Shown: positions 1,430 through 20,000 of the stretch, piece after piece
Layout: every line of letters starts with the position of its first letter
Position numbering within the stretch: the first letter of the stretch is position 1
From: Promethearchaeota archaeon
GTDB lineage: Archaea > Asgardarchaeota > Hermodarchaeia > Hermodarchaeales > Hermodarchaeaceae
Direction of reading: 5' to 3'
Length of the DNA stretch: 20,000 nucleotides
NCBI GenBank assembly: GCA_048938295.1
Contig: JBHLMI010000027.1
Coordinates: 15,427-35,426, forward strand
Program-made: the position numbers and the translations under genes
Notes under the pieces: model-generated
The model's database searches: none
Told to the model about the DNA's origin: nothing
Seen by the model: only the letters and a program-made list of their open reading frames with translations

Positions 1430-2617
1430 ATGCTACAATTCGAGTTCCTACTTCCTTTCCTTCCATGGCTGCTCATTTTGCTGGCATGGATGGTAATTAT
1501 TGGTCTTGCCTCAGTGTTCAAACTCGAAAAATATGGCGTTGAAGTTGGTCCTTTCATGCTCTTCGCCCGCACGCAACGATTTAACAACCTATTAGATCGC
1601 ATCGGACAATGGCATTCCCGTGCTTGGCGCTACATCTGGTCTTTCTTTATCGGCGCCGGCTTCTTCTTTTCATTATACGCGTTTTACTTCCTAGGATCAA
1701 ACGTGTGGGAATTCGTTAAAGCGGCCCTTGGTCAACCCAGCATGCCAGGAGCAGTTGCTCCTCTAATTCCTGGCGTTACAATGTCATTCAATTTCTTTTT
1801 GATGATCCTAATCCCCCTGATTGTGGCAGTTGTTGTACACGAACTCGCTCATGGTATCGCTGCCCGTGCTGATAATATCCCTGTTGAAAGTTCAGGCCTT
1901 TTCCTCTTCTTAGTCTTCTTCGGTGCCTTCGTTGAACCGGATGAAGAATATGTGAAAACCAAAACAACACGAATACAACGAGCCCGGCTCTACGCTTCTG
2001 GTTCTGGGGCAAACCTTACTGTTGCGGCTATTGCCTTGATCCTGTTGACCTTCATTATAATACCCCTTCCAAGTGGTGCGCTCATTTCACAGGTAGATCC
2101 TGGAACACCCGCATATGGTGTGTTAGTTCCAGGGATGGTCATCATTGGAATGAATGGCACGACTATCCAAACAAACCAAGATATTAGCACCTTCATGGCA
2201 AATACAAGTCCTGGAGATTTGGTGGTATTCACCTTATCAGAAGGCACAATACCTCTAACCCTTGGTACAAACCCAAACAACGCTTCGATTGGATATATCG
2301 GAATCTGGACACGAACCTATTTCCCGTTAGTGTATCCCTTTAGCCTTCTTGGACCAATAGTTGGTACTCAGTTTTATGAAGGGCTGACCTGGTTCTTCGT
2401 GATAACCATTAGTCTAGGTATCATTAACCTCTTACCTATTCCGCCTCTCGATGGTGATAGACTTTGGAAGGAACTCATCGATCGAACTGTTTCGCTAGAA
2501 CGAAAAAGCGGAAAAGTACTCCTTTGGGGACTTCGCGTCACCGCTCTAGCAATACTAATCCTCAACATAATTTTCACCTTTCTCAATCCAGCTCTCTTGC
2601 TCTTCTTCTTTCGTTAG
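1430..2617 (+). CDS. Site-2 protease-like membrane zinc metallopeptidase (M50) with inserted PDZ-like segment
   Basis: HELAHG (HExxH), NLLPIPPLDGDRLW, multiple TM segments, PDZ-like GALISQVDPGTPAYGVLVPGMVIIGMNG. Start chosen at ATG MLQFEF; the supplied ORF opens at 1319. Confidence 0.85.
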   Translation: MLQFEFLLPFLPWLLILLAWMVIIGLASVFKLEKYGVEVGPFMLFARTQRFNNLLDRIGQWHSRAWRYIWSFFIGAGFFFSLYAFYFLGSNVWEFVKAALGQPSMPGAVAPLIPGVTMSFNFFLMILIPLIVAVVVHELAHGIAARADNIPVESSGLFLFLVFFGAFVEPDEEYVKTKTTRIQRARLYASGSGANLTVAAIALILLTFIIIPLPSGALISQVDPGTPAYGVLVPGMVIIGMNGTTIQTNQDISTFMANTSPGDLVVFTLSEGTIPLTLGTNPNNASIGYIGIWTRTYFPLVYPFSLLGPIVGTQFYEGLTWFFVITISLGIINLLPIPPLDGDRLWKELIDRTVSLERKSGKVLLWGLRVTALAILILNIIFTFLNPALLLFFFR

Positions 2618-2654
2618 ATGAATGGAATTTTATTCCACAAACTCATAGCCACTA

Positions 2655-3596
2655 ATGACAATGACAAACGAATGTACGATATGCAAGGCAGAATCAGTTA
2701 TGTCTCGACCCTACTCAGGTGAAGTGCTTTGTGCGCGCTGCTTCAAGGACTCTGTTACCAATGCTGTGCGGATGGCTATTTCAAAGTACAATATGCTTGA
2801 ACGCACAGATCGAATTGCTGTTGGCTATTCAGGGGGAAAAGATAGCACCGTACTCTTAGCGATTCTGGTTGAGATCCAGCAACGTTTCCCTGAATCGGAA
2901 GTCATAGCTATAACCCTCGAAGAAGGCAACAAACAAGATCTTGCACGTCAAGAGGTGTTACAAAGTGTCACGAACACGCTCAAAGTAGAACATATAACAG
3001 CCTCATATCAGGATATGTTTTCCCTTACGCTTGATGAAATCGCGACTCAGGCACGAGCTATACAATCACCCCTCTCCCCATGTGCTTATTGTGGAACCCT
3101 TAGGCGACAGGGACTGAACCTGCTAGCTCGCAAAATTCAAGCCGATAAATTAGCCTTAGGGCACAATCTGGATGATGAAGTTCAATCGATGCTAATGAAT
3201 CTCATTCGTGGAGATTTACCCCGATTATCACGGATTACTCCACACCTGAAGGGTGTTTCTGGCTGGCTAGTACCCCGAATTAAACCCCTGTTTCATATTC
3301 TCGAATCTGATCTTGACCTCTTCGCTAAATTACTTGGGTATCCTGTCTACCATCCCCCCTGTCCCTACAAAGAAACCTCACTTCGCTCTGAATTCCGTGA
3401 ATGGCTCAACATATTCGAAGCCAAACATCCTGGCTCTAAATATAACCTTCATGCTACCTTCACGAAAATCATCGAAACCATTCAACAAGAAGAAGTTCCG
3501 TTCCAAAAATGTCAGAGTTGTGGGGAAATCACATCCCAGCGAATATGTGCAGTATGCCTTCATAAGAAAGCCCTGGGCTTCTCATCATCAAAATAG
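2655..3596 (+). CDS. tRNA 2-thiolation protein, TtuA/Ncs6/CTU1 family (PP-loop ATPase with zinc fingers)
   Basis: CxxC...CxxC N-terminus, SGGKDST PP-loop, CAYCGTLRR, C-terminal CQSCGE...CAVC. Confidence 0.9.
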   Translation: MTMTNECTICKAESVMSRPYSGEVLCARCFKDSVTNAVRMAISKYNMLERTDRIAVGYSGGKDSTVLLAILVEIQQRFPESEVIAITLEEGNKQDLARQEVLQSVTNTLKVEHITASYQDMFSLTLDEIATQARAIQSPLSPCAYCGTLRRQGLNLLARKIQADKLALGHNLDDEVQSMLMNLIRGDLPRLSRITPHLKGVSGWLVPRIKPLFHILESDLDLFAKLLGYPVYHPPCPYKETSLRSEFREWLNIFEAKHPGSKYNLHATFTKIIETIQQEEVPFQKCQSCGEITSQRICAVCLHKKALGFSSSK

Positions 3597-5120: not shown

Positions 5121-5229
5121 TGGTGGGCCGAGAGGGACTCGAACCCTCGACCATCGCGGTGTAAGCGCGATATCATAGCCCTCTAGTCTAAGAGAATATC
5201 CTCCTCTCAGATAGCTAGACTATCGGCCC
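5121..5229 (-). tRNA. tRNA-Val(TAC) with a 32-nt D-loop intron (5181-5212), CCA encoded
   Basis: GGGCCGA/TCGGCCC acceptor; anticodon arm TCGCG-CTTACAC-CGCGA; T-arm GAGGG-TTCGAGT-CCCTC. Removing 32 nt gives a 77-nt tRNA. Confidence 0.93.
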
Positions 5230-5296: not shown

Positions 5297-5806
5297 CTAG
5301 TTGTGTTTCATCTCTTGCTCAAGCGCCTCAATCTGTGTTTTAAGTAACTTTATGATTTGTAGATTGTCTACATGAACCAGCTGGCCATTACAAGTAGGAC
5401 ATTTAAAGGCGTTAGCCATAGCTTCATCAAAGGTATGGCGGGGACAGCCGTTGTTCTTACAATGGTAAAACGTGTTTTCTGTCTCGTAGTGGAGTCGTTG
5501 TTTTAATCGTTCAAGGACCTTTGTCTTTTTCTCATGGAGCAGGTCATGTATGCGATCAGGTTCCAGTATCCAGTAGTAGACAAACCATCCGGTTTGTTTA
5601 TCGCGGGTACGGCGATAAGACGCTAGATGAAGATCATAAAGTTTGTAAAGGATCTTTCGAACAGCATTGAGGCGCATACCAGTTTCGTTAGCAATCTCTT
5701 CGTCCGTCGTTTCTTCATCTTCTTTTAGGCGAGAAACCACTTCAAACGCGTCTTCACCGGCGAATTCAATAACAACCTGCTTAATTAGCATCTCACGTCC
5801 AGACAT
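5297..5806 (-). CDS. tfe: Transcription factor E subunit alpha (TFE, TFIIE-alpha homologue)
   Basis: Winged-helix DEEIANETGMRLNAVRKILYKLYDLHLASYRR followed by zinc ribbon CKNNGCPRHTFDEAMANAFKCPTC. Confidence 0.92.
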   Translation of the reverse strand: MSGREMLIKQVVIEFAGEDAFEVVSRLKEDEETTDEEIANETGMRLNAVRKILYKLYDLHLASYRRTRDKQTGWFVYYWILEPDRIHDLLHEKKTKVLERLKQRLHYETENTFYHCKNNGCPRHTFDEAMANAFKCPTCNGQLVHVDNLQIIKLLKTQIEALEQEMKHN

Positions 5807-5866
5807 AGATTTACGTATAACCTAACCTTGCATTGAATAAAGACCTTTTCGTTTAACAAACAAAAG

Positions 5867-6439
5867 TCAAGGATTAAATCGCTCAGTTTTTTCTTTAGAT
5901 TCGATTATCCGTTTCCCATGTGGAGTTGGGTCGATTCGTAGCACTGCATCAGGGAATTTCCTGCGGAGCATTTGCCCTTCAAATAGCCGGTCTAAAAAGA
6001 TCGAAAGGGCTGCAACTTCGCTATGGGGTTGATGACCAACAGCTACATTGTAATCAGCTAACTGGTATACTTGGTTCGGAACCTTAGGACCTCCTACAAC
6101 AACGAGTTTTGGTTGCCGTGAGCGGCGAATATCGTGAATTACATCATCAACATGAAGTCCGTACATGGTAAGATGAATGACCTCACCTTTCTCCTCCTTC
6201 CATTGATGAACCCGCGTCTTCCATTTGACACCTGTAAGTACTTTGAAATCCCTATTTCCCCATTGATTAGAAACCTGCCGGATTGTATCCTCGATATTCG
6301 GATCCTTAAGGCCCGCTGACCAAAACTCACTCGCACCAAATGCACGGGCCGTTAATCCCACATGAGTTGTAAGACGTTTATCACGCTCGGGACGGTGATC
6401 CAGCTTGAGTACAGTAATTCTCCATCTAGGCACGCTCAT
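5867..6439 (-). CDS. trm56: tRNA (cytidine(56)-2'-O)-methyltransferase
   Basis: ITVLKLDHRPERDKRLTTHVGLTARAFGA, HLTMYG and VVVGGPKVP motifs characteristic of aTrm56 (SPOUT). Confidence 0.92.
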   Translation of the reverse strand: MSVPRWRITVLKLDHRPERDKRLTTHVGLTARAFGASEFWSAGLKDPNIEDTIRQVSNQWGNRDFKVLTGVKWKTRVHQWKEEKGEVIHLTMYGLHVDDVIHDIRRSRQPKLVVVGGPKVPNQVYQLADYNVAVGHQPHSEVAALSIFLDRLFEGQMLRRKFPDAVLRIDPTPHGKRIIESKEKTERFNP

Positions 6440-13723: not shown

Positions 13724-14587
13724 TTACCTGCTGTTTAGTTGGATATCAAGAACGAAGTGATTGTACCTAGGATTATAGGTCTTTATCATTCGTGTATTAA
13801 CAAGCTTCACTTGTCGCTTCATCGTCAATGCCATCTTCTGTAATTGTGAAAGCAGCTTTGATTCCATATCTTCTTTAGGACCAATTTCATGGATGTGCAT
13901 CATACCTCCAGAACGAAGGCATTGTATTCCTTGTTCGAGATACTGACTAGTGCCTTGAATTAAACCCATGATGACCCGATCTGCTTGGCCTTTGCCTATT
14001 CGTGGGGCGAGTTGACGGGCATCTCCAAAATGTGGCTGGATCAATTGGGAGACATTGTTTGATTGGATGTTTTGTTCAAGATAATGGAAGGCATCAGGGT
14101 TCCACTCAATTGCATGAATGGCTTTGGGTTTTGCGTGCACAGCCATGGGAAGAGATAGGTACCCTATCCCGGCAAACATGTCAATGACAAACTCATCAGT
14201 TCCCAGCCTGCTCATGCGTAGCCGTTCTGCCTTATTTCCAAAGGAAAACATGACTTTCACTGGATCTAAATGGAAAATCACTTTGTTTTCTCGAAAGACT
14301 GTCTCAGTTTCAGGTGATCCAGCAATCAATTCCACTGAAGGTTTCCGGTAGGGACCCGTAATTGCAGCTGTTCGCCGTAGGACGGATCGAATTTTAGTAC
14401 TATATCCTAGCGTAGCGTCTCCAATCAACTCCTTGTATTGCACAATTAGTGGGTCTAGCCACAAGATGGCTACATGGCCCAGTATTCGAAGCCGTCGAGG
14501 TAGGAGTCCAGGAGGTATCTGGTCTCCCAGCTGGGTTTTGAGGAAGTGATAGAAAGTTGTGCGGTGCCGATGGGTTATTTTCTTCAC
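13724..14587 (-). CDS. Trm5/TYW2-type class I methyltransferase fold enzyme, closest in motif to Taw2 (wyosine aminocarboxypropyltransferase)
   Basis: FVIDMFAGIGYLSLPMAVHAKPKAIHAIEWNPDAFHYLEQNIQSNNV, DRVIMGLIQGT, MMHIHE. Confidence 0.8.
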   Translation of the reverse strand: MKKITHRHRTTFYHFLKTQLGDQIPPGLLPRRLRILGHVAILWLDPLIVQYKELIGDATLGYSTKIRSVLRRTAAITGPYRKPSVELIAGSPETETVFRENKVIFHLDPVKVMFSFGNKAERLRMSRLGTDEFVIDMFAGIGYLSLPMAVHAKPKAIHAIEWNPDAFHYLEQNIQSNNVSQLIQPHFGDARQLAPRIGKGQADRVIMGLIQGTSQYLEQGIQCLRSGGMMHIHEIGPKEDMESKLLSQLQKMALTMKRQVKLVNTRMIKTYNPRYNHFVLDIQLNSR

Positions 14588-16867: not shown

Positions 16868-16923
16868 CCAGCAGGATTCATCCTTGCCTTAAAAATGTTG
16901 TGAACTCCTCTCACCGAAAAAAC

Positions 16924-17059
16924 TGGTGGGCCGGCCGAGATTCGAACTCGGGACCACGAGGTCCCAAACCTTGCGAGAAAAACAGAACCCGTTTTCCTTC
17001 TCGCATCATACCGCTCTAGTCCAGCACATATTGTAACTGGATAACTAGACTACCGGCCC
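16924..17059 (-). tRNA. tRNA-Pro(TGG) with two non-canonical BHB introns (17014-17042 and 16970-16999), CCA encoded
   Basis: GGGCCGG/CCGGCCC acceptor; spliced anticodon arm CGAGG-TTTGGGA-CCTCG; T-arm CCGAG-TTCGAAT-CTCGG. 136 nt minus 59 nt of introns = 77 nt. Confidence 0.92.
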
Positions 17060-17189
17060 GATGCGCGTAAAGGAACAGACGGGTACTTGATAAATCTTAT
17101 CTAGAAACTTCTTGCTACAATCTACTTTCAATTATACCAGGGTCTCTGCAGAAAATAAAACCCGGTTTTATTATTTTCTACCTGAGTGA

Positions 17190-18572
17190 TGCATTGTGGC
17201 TCTATTCGAAAGACAACCGAATTGGACTAAAGCACATCTTATGAAAACAGATTTCATAACGCGAACGGTATGGTCACGTTTACCGAATATATCTAAAAAT
17301 TTAGTCAGAAAATTGCGTCGTATATACACAAGAGCAATTAATGTTTTTTTGATTGACTTAGAAGAAAACAAAGGAAGCATCAAAGAAACTTATCACGAAC
17401 TTCGTAACAATGAATAGTTTTCAAAATTATCCGCGAAAATGCTTAACCAAGCATCACAGGAAGCATTTGTTTGGTTTAATTTAAGACGAAAGGAGAGAGT
17501 TCTAACAGATCAAGAAATACAGAATTGGACAAAATGGGCAAAGAAACAAGGCATTGCGAATTTTGATCCCTCACAAAGTCTTCCAAGATTAATTTCTCAC
17601 TCCGATTATCTTAAAGGACGGCCAGGAAAAAAACACGGTCAATGGCCGCAGACAGCAATTGATGGTGCACGGTTTTACATTGATTCAATTACGAATAATA
17701 TTCTAGTGTCAATCGATAAAGTTGCTAAGAGAACCCAGGTTGTAATTGGTGGAGAACCTGAAAAGCTTCTTCGCCAAGCAATTTCTGGTATACTATCACT
17801 GAAAATCGGTTCTTCACGGCTTCTTGTCAAAGACGGAGTTACACAAATGGCTACTCCTATCCGAGTATCTGTTAATATTCCAGATATTTCAAGCCTTGAA
17901 CAGCCAACGCTGATAGGTGTGGATCTAGGACTAAATACATTAGCTGCTGTGGTTGCGCTAACTTTTGATCGAAGGATCCACCCAGCCAAATCGATCTCTG
18001 GAAAACAACTCAAACACCGTTTAGCATCACTTTGGGCAAAACGAAAAAACGCCGCACGCAAACAAAAATCAGAAAGTATACAAGATATCGATGAAAAGAC
18101 ACAACGAGTAATCCAATATTGGATTCATGTGACAGCAAAAGCAGTAATTAACTATGCAAGTCAGTTCCCACATCCAATAATCGTTCTAGAAGATCTTCGA
18201 AATTATATTCCAACGAAAAAGCGAACTCGATGGGCAAGTTCCTCAATGAGAGACCAGCTTAGTAAATGGGCGCGGGGAAGACTCTTTGAAGCAATTTGTA
18301 TGAAAGCTAGTCTACGTAATTTACCTGTAATCAGAGTCAATGCAGCATATTCTTCTCACGTCTGCCCTAGACAATGTCTTTGTCTTCTACCTCAAGGATA
18401 TTTCGAAGTGTTTCACTGTCCTGCATGTGGCGCAAAAGTTCCACGAGACATTAGTGCAGCTACTGAAATTGCACGTCGTGGTCTTCATCAGGTTACAGAC
18501 AATAAAGTGCAGAACTCTAAGGTTCTTGGCAACGAGAACACATCATCCTTGACCCAATCAGCGGCAGGATGA
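17190..18572 (+). pseudogene. Second TnpB-like nuclease gene, same frame interrupted by a single TAG (17415-17417)
   Basis: LIGVDLGLNTLAAV, IIVLEDLRNY, SSHVCPRQC...CPACGAKVPRDISAATEIARRG. ORFs 17196..17417 and 17439..18572 share a frame, with coding-like residues FSKLSAK between them. Confidence 0.75.
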
Positions 18573-18891
18573 TCGGGGCTATGGAAAGGGCCCTGAATAG
18601 GAGCGGTTAAGACCGTTAAGTAGTAAATTCTCTTGCTTGGCAAGGGAATTAGTGTAAAGGCATGGATAACCTTCGGCACCGGTCCTCCAAATTGGTATGG
18701 AGATTCAATGGCAATCACATTGAAACTCAGATACACACTTTCGGGTATGATGCGAGCAAACAAAACCAGAAATAACTCTGTAGAAAGAAATCTATGGAAA
18801 AATACAGACCGAACTAGACTACCGGTCCAGTTCCCGAAAGGGTACAATCGGAAGTTCAAAAACCTTTGTCCAATTTAGGTGTTCCGATAGG

Positions 18892-19539
18892 TCATGCTTC
18901 AGTTAATCTACTGATGGGGAACCGGATGTAGTAGTAAGGTTTTCCATCTGTGTAATTGACTCTTGGGGATCTCGAAATGATATCGAAATGTTTCTTTAAA
19001 AGGCGAACAAGTTCCTTCAGAAAATTCTTATCGCGCTGTTTTAACTGAACCCGTTTTCTCGTTAAGGAACCATCCGTGTCAATCAAACCAAACATGTAAT
19101 GTTTGAAAAGAAATGGATCTTTTGCAATCAAGGAGGGTACCCTCATATTTTGTTTCTTCCCAGATTGAAAGCCCAATTTATTGAAGAAGAAGTAAGCTGC
19201 TGCACGCTGGATGTTTATGGCATAGCAGTTCTTCTTTCTCTTATCTCGCAGAACACGCGGTTGAAAATCAAAGAGGTCCTTGACTAGCACCGATAATTGT
19301 TTTAGGTAATTTTTCCGACCAACAACCTTTACTCGATAATGATAACCGCCTTTCCTTCGTTGGCACTTATTCAGGTTGCCATCACCCGCAACAACACCAG
19401 CAAAATATGCAACCTTATCACTAATTTCCGGAATTTTTGTCTTTGATTTTTTGGTGCAGATGAAATCCTTCTGAATCCTGTGCCAAACACCTGCTTCATC
19501 TAAAGCCTGTGAAATTGAATGTATTTTGACACCCTTCAT
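18892..19539 (-). CDS. LAGLIDADG homing endonuclease
   Basis: Two motifs, YFAGVVAGDGNLN and YMFGLIDTDGSL. The supplied ORF start (19647) lies inside tRNA-Thr, so the MKGVKIHSI start is more plausible. Confidence 0.88.
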   Translation of the reverse strand: MKGVKIHSISQALDEAGVWHRIQKDFICTKKSKTKIPEISDKVAYFAGVVAGDGNLNKCQRRKGGYHYRVKVVGRKNYLKQLSVLVKDLFDFQPRVLRDKRKKNCYAINIQRAAAYFFFNKLGFQSGKKQNMRVPSLIAKDPFLFKHYMFGLIDTDGSLTRKRVQLKQRDKNFLKELVRLLKKHFDIISRSPRVNYTDGKPYYYIRFPISRLTEA

Positions 19540-19586
19540 TCTTAGTGTGTTCTTTACAAAATTGTCTAAAAACTCGTTATTTGAAA

Positions 19587-19661
19587 TGGAGCCTCCGCCG
19601 GGATTTGAACCCGGGACCATTGGCTTACAAGGCCAACGCACCACCACTATGCTACGGAGGC
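19587..19661 (-). tRNA. tRNA-Thr(TGT), CCA encoded, no intron
   Basis: GCCTCCG/CGGAGGC acceptor, TTGGC-CTTGTAA-GCCAA anticodon arm, CCGGG-TTCAAAT-CCCGG T-arm, discriminator T, CCA. Confidence 0.94.
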
Positions 19662-19756
19662 TTATTTGAAGGTATACCTGCTCAATAGATTAATCATTCG
19701 GAGAAGGTGGGTGTGTTTGGAATCGGATGCATATAAGCCAAAAAATGTTTTGCCAT

Positions 19757-19802
19757 CCGAGAGAGCTGCTGGTCGTGGGTTCAATCCCCGCTCGAGGCTC
19801 CA
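19757..19802 (+). tRNA. Orphan tRNA 3' half (T-arm + acceptor 3' strand + CCA), split-tRNA candidate or remnant
   Basis: TGGTC GTGGG-TTCAATC-CCCGC TCGAGGC T CCA. No GCCTCGA-like 5' half found in cis. TATA-like ATATAA at 19731-19736. Confidence 0.5.
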
Positions 19803-19842: not shown

Positions 19843-19953
19843 TGGTGCGGGGGCCGGGCTTCGAACCCGGGAACTCCTACGAGACAGGATCTTAAGTCCT
19901 GCGCCTTTGACCAAGCTTGGCTGTGGGGTCTACGAATGGGTAGATACCCCCGC
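19843..19953 (-). tRNA. tRNA-Leu(TAA) with a 23-nt intron between nt 8 and 9 (19923-19945), CCA encoded
   Basis: GCGGGGG/CCCCCGC acceptor, CAGGA-CTTAAGA-TCCTG anticodon arm, class II variable arm, CCGGG-TTCGAAG-CCCGG. Splicing gives GCGGGGGTAGCCAAGC. Confidence 0.92.
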
Positions 19954-20000
19954 GGCTTAGTCTTCGGGACGCTGACCCTTGGACAGGTCCCCCGCACAGC

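Follow-up and report, generated by a model that had tools for sequence, protein, structure and literature searches.

Multi-intron tRNA genes of the Thermoproteales have been described through SPLITS analyses (Sugahara et al. 2007/2008) and in connection with intron transposition (Fujishima et al. 2010), and are reviewed in PMC4033280 and PMC4090602. Among Asgard archaea, Atabeyarchaeia/Freyarchaeia carry introns in 92-95% of their tRNA genes, often non-canonical and in more than half of the cases multiple, with 2-3 introns recorded for tRNA-Pro(TGG) (Valentin-Alvarado et al. 2024, PMC11291895). In Caldiarchaeum subterraneum, a 5' fragment of tRNA-Thr(GGU) (nucleotides (nt) 1-27) lies ~1.8 kb upstream of the two-intron gene; the insertion carries an open reading frame (ORF), the duplicated 5' segment contains the extra intron, and the population also includes an allele lacking this intron (Sugahara et al. 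2012, PMC3293823). Here we analysed a 20-kb stretch of DNA from a Promethearchaeota archaeon (contig JBHLMI010000027.1, positions 15,427 to 35,426; hereafter the window), which encodes on its minus strand, at 17059-16924, a pre-tRNA-Pro(UGG) of 136 nt interrupted by two short inserts, designated intron A and intron B. Our analysis indicates that this is very probably a working gene whose two introns are removed by the splicing endonuclease EndA, and that it is probably a replacement copy of an intronless resident.

As a two-intron tRNA gene of the non-canonical type, the locus belongs to a kind already known from the Thermoproteales and Asgard archaea, and adds an example rather than a concept. 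It resembles the Thermoproteales in having short introns, here predicted to be protein-spliced, that occupy non-canonical positions (in that group as many as three in one tRNA) and show relaxed HBh' motifs, in carrying similar introns at the same site of different tRNAs (the D-loop introns of tRNA-Pro and tRNA-Val), and in the expected dependence on a broad-specificity (αβ)2 EndA. However, the Thermoproteales belong to the phylum Thermoproteota, whereas the present lineage is Asgard (Promethearchaeota) with a moderate G+C content of ~44%. The Atabeyarchaeia/Freyarchaeia are another Asgard lineage; intron density seems lower in ours, with 2/5 window tRNAs uninterrupted, and neither allele polymorphism nor a mobile-element context is described in that paper (PMC11291895).

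Excision of both inserts yields a 77-nt tRNA-Pro(tgg) called by ARAGORN, with a full cloverleaf, G37, A73 and an encoded CCA (exons and introns in Table 1). The unspliced gene gave no match in ARAGORN with intron mode on or off, nor in Rfam at the gathering or E<=1 thresholds. Standard detectors are thus blind to it, and detection required explicit excision. We scanned the whole window in a SPLITS-like manner for bulge-helix-bulge (BHB) patterns consisting of a 4-bp helix, two 3-nt bulges and an inner helix of >=3 bp, excised one or two candidates at a time and submitted the products to ARAGORN (~24,000 single or double excisions). In this blind scan, the 77-nt Pro solution corresponded exactly to removal of 17042-17014 together with 16999-16970. 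The loose BHB pattern is frequent by itself, with ~1,500 candidates per strand in the window; significance therefore rests on the combination of motif, tRNA reconstitution and the intronless orthologue with its comparative data. An earlier sequence-only reading of the window had given the same coordinates and sequences for both introns.

Orthologues of the locus were collected by an exon-3 pattern scan, which returned three Asgard metagenome-assembled genome (MAG) loci from GTDB genomes and one locus from metagenomes; the yield was low because relatives with a TTCAAAT T-loop were missed, and further orthologues were reached by protein-anchored look-ups through TnpB and DUF1512. One of them (L003, 'Promethearchaeota archaeon DZ2M.269') carries an uninterrupted tRNA-Pro that is identical to the spliced product at 77/77 positions and scores 63.6 bits against the Rfam tRNA family RF00005. 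Its locus is orthologous, with the 5S rRNA, DUF1512 and cytidylyltransferase genes downstream. This natural intronless gene bears out two claims of the sequence-only reading, namely that the window holds a tRNA-Pro(UGG) with two non-canonical BHB-type introns and that their removal leaves a perfect 77-nt tRNA.

Both introns are present in six other orthologues (L002, L004, L005 from a metagenome contig, L006, L007 and L016), among which TnpB dS (synonymous divergence) reaches 0.68. Across the seven two-intron genes, variable columns number 2/77 in the exons, 3/34 in the BHB core (bulges, 3' strands of the central helix H and the first 5 bp of the inner helix h') and 15/25 in the distal stem-loops (the remaining stems and loops), and the splice motifs are thus selectively conserved (core versus distal, Fisher p=3.5e-5). 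Exon 1 does not vary among these genes and equals that of L003, and exon 2 has a single variable column (U to C in L007). Two of the core changes lie in helices, where A-U becomes G.U at 22:37 and G.U becomes A-U at 64:82 without loss of pairing, and the third affects bulge nucleotide 61. In intron A, stem changes are likewise pair-preserving (A-U to G.U, U.G to C-G) and 7/8 variable columns are distal. Overall, the BHB structure is 99% paired over the seven sequences. The upstream promoter-like block P_new recurs at all seven two-intron loci, where the encoded CCA and the T-run are conserved as well.

Both introns contain a 4-bp helix between two 3-nt bulges on opposite strands, with the cuts in the bulges. 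In intron A, H is CUAG/CUAG, the 5' bulge UU^A, h' UCCAG(U)/(G)CUGGA and the 3' bulge AG^C; in intron B, H is UGCG/CGCA, the 5' bulge AG^A, h' AGGAAAAC/GUUUUUCU and the 3' bulge AG^G. The minimum-energy fold of intron A holds the central CUAG/CUAG helix, the UUA 5' bulge and the inner hairpin h', and no outer helix closes its 3' bulge. In intron B, pairing of UCU with either AGA or AGG allows a slipped register (-13.9 kcal/mol), which the minimum-energy fold adopts; the strict BHB (-9.8 kcal/mol) is less stable by 4 kcal/mol. The strict hBHBh' form, which is the substrate of α4 and α'2 EndA, includes a stable outer helix; in neither intron does this helix exceed 2 bp. Given these short outer helices and the more stable slipped register of intron B, both motifs are of the relaxed HBh' class and not ideal BHBs, and the description of intron A as 'near-ideal' in the sequence-only reading was overstated. 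Two substitutions lend weak comparative support to the BHB register of intron B: A61 to U in L007 disrupts the slipped register, and G64 to A in L002 and L007 changes a G.U to an A-U pair in the BHB register. Because an AG repeat lies at both borders of intron B, the sequence does not distinguish between cuts at 28/29, 29/30 and 30/31.

The sequence-only reading had also held that two such introns imply a broad-specificity splicing endonuclease. Relaxed HBh' motifs are cleaved only by (αβ)2 or ε2 EndA (PMC5829648, PMC4033280), and (αβ)2 EndA with the L1 loop occurs throughout Asgard (Kaneta et al. 2018, PMC5829648). The closest DNA relatives of the window are MAGs labelled Thor-, Hod- or Promethearchaeota, all Asgard, and a broad-specificity enzyme is accordingly what the literature leads one to expect. 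No EndA gene was found in the 20-kb window. Among relatives, L018 (555-1193 (+)) and L019 encode an EndA homologue ~2.3 kb away from the orthologous tRNA-Pro locus, and a HycI-EndA-rpiA neighbourhood recurs in L008 (EndA 5549-6145 (-)), L012 and L014. Both the N- and C-terminal endonuclease domains are present in this homologue. At the position of the catalytic His in M. jannaschii and M. kandleri EndA, the triad being placed according to the M. jannaschii structure, L018 and L008 carry Thr. Lacking the catalytic His, the homologue is probably a structural β-type subunit, which would imply a heteromeric enzyme. The homologues of L018 and L008 also carry an acidic N-terminal extension.

Several points weigh against our interpretation of the gene. 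The outer helices are nearly absent (U11.G48 only in intron A, A-U and G.U in intron B), none of the orthologues has the strict BHB as the minimum-energy fold of intron B, and no two-sided compensatory covariation was found in any intron helix of the seven orthologues, which are too few and too close for shuffle controls to be informative. Our own check of EndA covered the β-like homologue of relatives, and the search for tRNA-Pro(UGG) genes was confined to the window. The last point leaves room for the view that the interrupted gene is a decaying pseudogene and that a functional tRNA-Pro(UGG) is encoded elsewhere in the genome, the more so as the locus, with its TnpB gene, LAGLIDADG ORF and tRNA fragments, is a rearrangement hot spot. 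Nevertheless, the exons hardly vary over dS ~0.68, in contrast to the freely diverging flanking spacers and intron loops, the promoter block is retained along with the encoded CCA and the T-run, the truncated copy at this locus is the uninterrupted one, and ARAGORN, Rfam and the excision scan found no further Pro tRNA within the window. Decay is therefore a very improbable account of the gene.

Taking the two-intron gene as functional, the following pathway is proposed. The gene would be transcribed from its own upstream promoter into a 136-nt precursor, in which each insert and its flanking exon sequence would fold into the 4-bp central helix, the two 3-nt bulges and the inner hairpin. EndA, expected to be of the (αβ)2 broad-specificity type, would cut after the second nucleotide of each bulge, and an RtcB-type ligase would join the three exons into the 77-nt tRNA, with the introns released, probably as circles. 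The two-intron gene would itself be the replacement copy, its predecessor surviving as the 25-nt stub behind the old promoter, beyond the TnpB gene.

This last step draws on the remains of a second tRNA-Pro gene upstream of the functional one. The window remnant, which also occurs in L005, L006 and L007, is uninterrupted at the D-loop site and has one acceptor-strand change (G3 to A). It lies behind a TATA-like element, P_anc, that is found directly before tRNA-Pro in L003, L018 and L019, and the upstream block of the functional two-intron gene, P_new, is distinct from it. L003 has neither TnpB nor a stub. L016 has both introns, no TnpB and a 54-nt stub uninterrupted at both intron sites, which forms a chimeric pseudo-tRNA 0.9 kb upstream of its functional two-intron gene: intronless tRNA-Pro nt 1-54 stand behind the ancestral promoter and are followed by a tail made of the T-loop and 3' end of a tRNA-Thr(GGU)-type gene that cannot pair with the remnant. 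That the stubs behind the ancestral promoter are uninterrupted indicates an originally intronless resident gene, like that of L003. We infer that this resident was displaced by a two-intron copy with its own promoter and that the stub was then trimmed differently in each lineage. Simple insertion at nt 25/26 was considered and discarded, since it leaves intron B unaccounted for and conflicts with the 54-nt remnant of L016.

The reverse history, in which both introns were present ancestrally and disappeared from L003, for instance when a cDNA copy of the mature tRNA recombined with the gene, has to be weighed against gene replacement. The tRNA-Pro genes of L018, L019 and L020 carry one D-loop intron at the intron A site, none at 30/31, and an ancestral-type promoter, so that this intron position is old in the clade. 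However, the stubs left at the ancestral promoter lack an intron at the D-loop site (window, L005, L006, L007) or at both sites (L016), and the two-intron gene has a different promoter. We consider an ancestral two-intron state unlikely, though not far-fetched. The remnant could also be read as still in use, with the old promoter supplying exon 1 and the ~1.75 kb beyond it forming one long intron or the stub serving as a trans-spliced 5' half. The first 19 nt of the remnant and the old TATA element are indeed conserved well beyond the neighbouring spacer and neutral expectation, and the remnant holds the CUAG for the H helix of intron A. By inspection, however, the nucleotides after its would-be 5' bulge (GGUCUG...) cannot pair before the 3' CUAG and no h' forms, the G3 to A change would break the acceptor stem, and the L016 remnant is fused to a tail with which it cannot pair. 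On these three grounds we rejected a long intron or trans-splicing donor, to which we give almost no credence.

Returning to gene replacement, the locus shows the features by which Sugahara et al. (2012) recognised integration, that is, a displaced 5' direct repeat, inserted DNA, a new intron inside the repeat and an intronless allele in relatives. The layout is that of Caldiarchaeum, with a stub of nt 1-25, ~1.75 kb containing an ORF, and intron A inside the duplicated segment. The differences are threefold. The Caldiarchaeum ORF is a putative integrase or recombinase, whereas no integrase lies between stub and gene here, the only ORF being a recognisable TnpB with an omegaRNA-like 3' region. 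In Caldiarchaeum one intron is absent from the alternative allele, whereas here both are, from the intronless allele and from the long L016 remnant. Finally, the present insertion is old (dS ~0.6) and fixed in the clade, and that of Caldiarchaeum segregates in one population. Since the L016 remnant reaches nt 54, the remnants share no single junction, and the locus does not fit att-type site-specific recombination. The value of the locus lies in an allele series at one orthologous position, intronless in L003, one-intron in L018, L019 and L020, and two-intron in the window and six relatives, together with the 25- and 54-nt stubs of the displaced intronless gene and a TnpB under purifying selection. 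It would be the second independent natural snapshot, after Caldiarchaeum, of tRNA intron gain by gene replacement linked to mobile DNA, and the first such case tied to an RNA-guided nuclease with tRNA sequence in its putative guide region.

Beside the old promoter, and starting within or directly after tRNA-Thr(UGU), lies an ORF with a LAGLIDADG domain (Pfam LAGLIDADG_3). It is kept in L003, L005, L007 and L016 between tRNA-Thr(UGU) and the old tRNA-Pro promoter, and stands alone, not embedded in any recognisable intron or intein.

The TnpB gene lies between the remnant and the functional gene, 137 nt upstream of tRNA-Pro on the opposite strand. Its product matches PF07282, PF01385 and PF22126, the zinc-finger/TNB domain included, and the RuvC D/E/D residues are intact, with GVDLG, VLEDL and PRDISAA conserved. 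A dN/dS of ~0.2 over dS up to 0.68 shows purifying selection, and at least six related genomes carry TnpB as a fixed gene of this locus, full-length orthologues having 458 aa. The window copy contains an in-frame premature TAG at 17415-17417 that is unique to it, the aligned relatives having TGG or CGG. TnpA is absent, and no second copy of the window element was found at another site. TnpB relatives of ~52% identity that lie at other loci have the same left-end motif, and also the end motif (...ACTTTC) of a putative omegaRNA scaffold that is located downstream of the gene and matches no Rfam family; the shared scaffold end is followed by a lineage-specific block of 18-20 nt. The left flanks of the element share a conserved TTTCA, which may be either a transposon-associated motif (TAM) or the element end.

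The 20-mer at the corresponding guide position in the window consists, in its first 13 nt, of exon 2 nt 2-14 in tRNA sense, and the match stops exactly at the 5' splice site of intron B. Compared with exon 2 and the start of intron B it matches at 16-17/20, versus 13/20 for the intronless allele. The 20-mer is invariant in the window, L005 and L007 despite ~45% neutral divergence, and the next 45 nt diverge freely. A second TnpB lineage (L008 4556-4573, L012 1699-1716, L014 2774-2791) carries 18 guide-position nt after the shared scaffold end, which equal the 3' end and trailer of the L019 tRNA-Thr(GGU) (about 1591, -) at 18/18. A complete but different tRNA-Thr(GGU) lies immediately upstream, on the left-end side of that element, and the locus is conserved beside rpiA and the EndA homologue. 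We rejected a first boundary model, in which the right end of TnpB abuts the remnant, the guide is antisense to tRNA nt 1-21 and intron A breaks the target, because the cross-lineage comparison sets the scaffold end ~60 nt earlier. A likeness of intron A to element ends was not convincing, and inversion and fold-back origins of the inverted exon-2 13-mer were tried by hand, none of which fits.

Judged by sequence, these tRNA matches and their conservation suggest a functional link between the TnpB family and tRNA genes, be it homing, cleave-and-rescue or regulation, and such a link would bear on how non-canonical tRNA introns multiply. The most specific form is that the two-intron tRNA-Pro is the 'rescue' half of a selfish TnpB cassette, with TnpB cutting uninterrupted resident alleles. 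The replacement tRNA would then stand on the left-end side and the guide would correspond to a stretch of the resident tRNA with matching identity: in the window's lineage tRNA-Pro exon 2, the segment bracketed by both introns, and in the second lineage the 3' end and trailer of an ancestral-type tRNA-Thr(GGU). The linked copy would escape since introns or substitutions break the TAM and target. However, the guide of the window's lineage fully matches no allele compared, and the two-intron allele persists without TnpB in L016. We regard cleave-and-rescue as a speculative and improbable reading; if true, it would provide an RNA-guided route for the spread of non-canonical tRNA introns. The IStrons (bacterial group I introns with an IS200/605/607 TnpB; PMC4227781, PMC13521648) offer a conceptual likeness only. 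In both cases a TnpB transposon is physically coupled to an intron that keeps an interrupted host gene functional, but here the introns are BHB introns of 29-30 nt, predicted to be protein-spliced, TnpB lies outside them on the other strand, and there is no sign of the element itself being spliced.

Table 1 Features of the tRNA-Pro(UGG) locus and of the neighbouring and related tRNA genes (window coordinates unless another locus is named)
Feature	Coordinates	Strand	Sequence	Remarks
Exon 1	17043..17059	-	GGGCCGGUAGUCUAGUU	17 nt; tRNA nt 1-17; acceptor 5' strand, D-stem 5' strand, D-loop start
Intron A	17014..17042	-	AUCCAGUUACAAUAUGUGCUGGACUAGAG	29 nt; D-loop, after nt 17
Exon 2 (mini-exon)	17000..17013	-	CGGUAUGAUGCGAG	14 nt; remaining D-loop, D-stem 3' strand, nt 26, anticodon-stem nt 27-30
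Intron B	16970..16999	-	AAGGAAAACGGGUUCUGUUUUUCUCGCAAG	30 nt; at 30/31, anticodon-stem 5' strand
Exon 3	16924..16969	-	GUUUGGGACCUCGUGGUCCCGAGUUCGAAUCUCGGCCGGCCCACCA	46 nt; nt 31-73 and encoded CCA; anticodon UGG, G37
T-run	16917..16922	-		Directly 3' of CCA; likely terminator, from sequence
5S rRNA gene	16866-16748			Solitary; preceded by its promoter; downstream of the tRNA-Pro T-run
P_new, conserved upstream block	17086..17104	-	CTAGATAAGATTTATCAAG	Putative BRE (B recognition element)/TATA-like promoter
TnpB element left-end motif	17126..17147	+	TTTCAATTATACCAGGGTCTCT	Common to TnpB relatives of ~52% identity at other loci
TnpB (IS200/IS605 accessory nuclease)	17196..18572	+		458 codons; divergent from tRNA-Pro
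Putative omegaRNA scaffold	18573..18743	+	...ACACTTTCG (end)	Assigned by position and conservation
Guide-position 20-mer	18744..18763	+	GGTATGATGCGAGCAAACAA	After the putative omegaRNA scaffold
Intronless tRNA-Pro 5' remnant	18804..18828	-	GGACCGGTAGTCTAGTTCGGTCTGT	tRNA gene nt 1-25; ~1.75 kb upstream
P_anc, ancestral promoter TATA-like element	18854..18867	-	AAAGGTTTTTGAAC	Directly before tRNA-Pro in L003, L018, L019
Chimeric pseudo-tRNA	L016 2174-2250	+		Intronless tRNA-Pro nt 1-54 with tRNA-Thr(GGU)-type tail
LAGLIDADG-domain ORF	18892-19647	-		
tRNA-Thr(UGU)	19661-19587			Uninterrupted
tRNA-Thr-like 3' part	about 19751-19802	+	…GGTCGTGGGTTCAATCCCCGCTCGAGGCTCCA	
tRNA-Leu(UAA)	19953-19843	-		23-nt intron 19923-19945 at 8/9
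Second GCGGGGG	about 19989-19995			~45 nt upstream of tRNA-Leu(UAA)
tRNA-Val(UAC)	5229-5121	-		32-nt intron 5181-5212, D-loop after nt 17
Trm5/Taw22-family methyltransferase	13724-14587	-		2.3 kb from tRNA-Pro
Multi-insert tRNA gene	L008 about 2630-2840	+		
Multi-insert tRNA gene	L018 about 2320-2560	-		

Non-canonical introns occur in 3/5 tRNA genes of the window (Val, Leu and Pro), and Ser(GCU) is uninterrupted like Thr(UGU). The remark of the sequence-only reading that two introns in one tRNA are uncommon thus holds for archaea overall and not for this Asgard lineage (see also PMC11291895). The intron of tRNA-Val(UAC) shares with intron A its site, its ends (AUC...GACUAGAG) and its CUAG/CUAG central helix, and is identical at 22/32 positions to the D-loop intron of the L018 tRNA-Pro; similar introns at one site of different tRNAs have been termed intron transposition in Thermoproteales (PMC4033280, PMC4090602). 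This gene was missed by ARAGORN, and Rfam matched its 3' two-thirds only. The motif of the tRNA-Leu(UAA) intron is GGGG-GU^A-UCUAC...GUAGA-CCCC-AC^A, and the second GCGGGGG upstream of the gene may, from its sequence, be another 5' stub.

A tRNA-Thr-like 3' part lies near tRNA-Thr(UGU), and no matching 5' half was found in the window. Its orthologue is complete in L018 and L019, with an intron near the anticodon, and the window piece may represent a gene fragment, a split gene or one interrupted by a long intron. In other Asgard lineages, multi-insert tRNA genes (acceptor GCCGAGG.../...CCUCGGCACCA) with one insert in the T-loop adjoin TnpB genes. The window also carries an archaeal signal recognition particle RNA, and a Trm5/Taw22-family methyltransferase (m1G37 or wyosine pathway) is encoded near the G37-bearing tRNA-Pro. 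The synteny of this last gene is kept in L002, L017 and L018, and its proximity to tRNA-Pro is probably coincidental.

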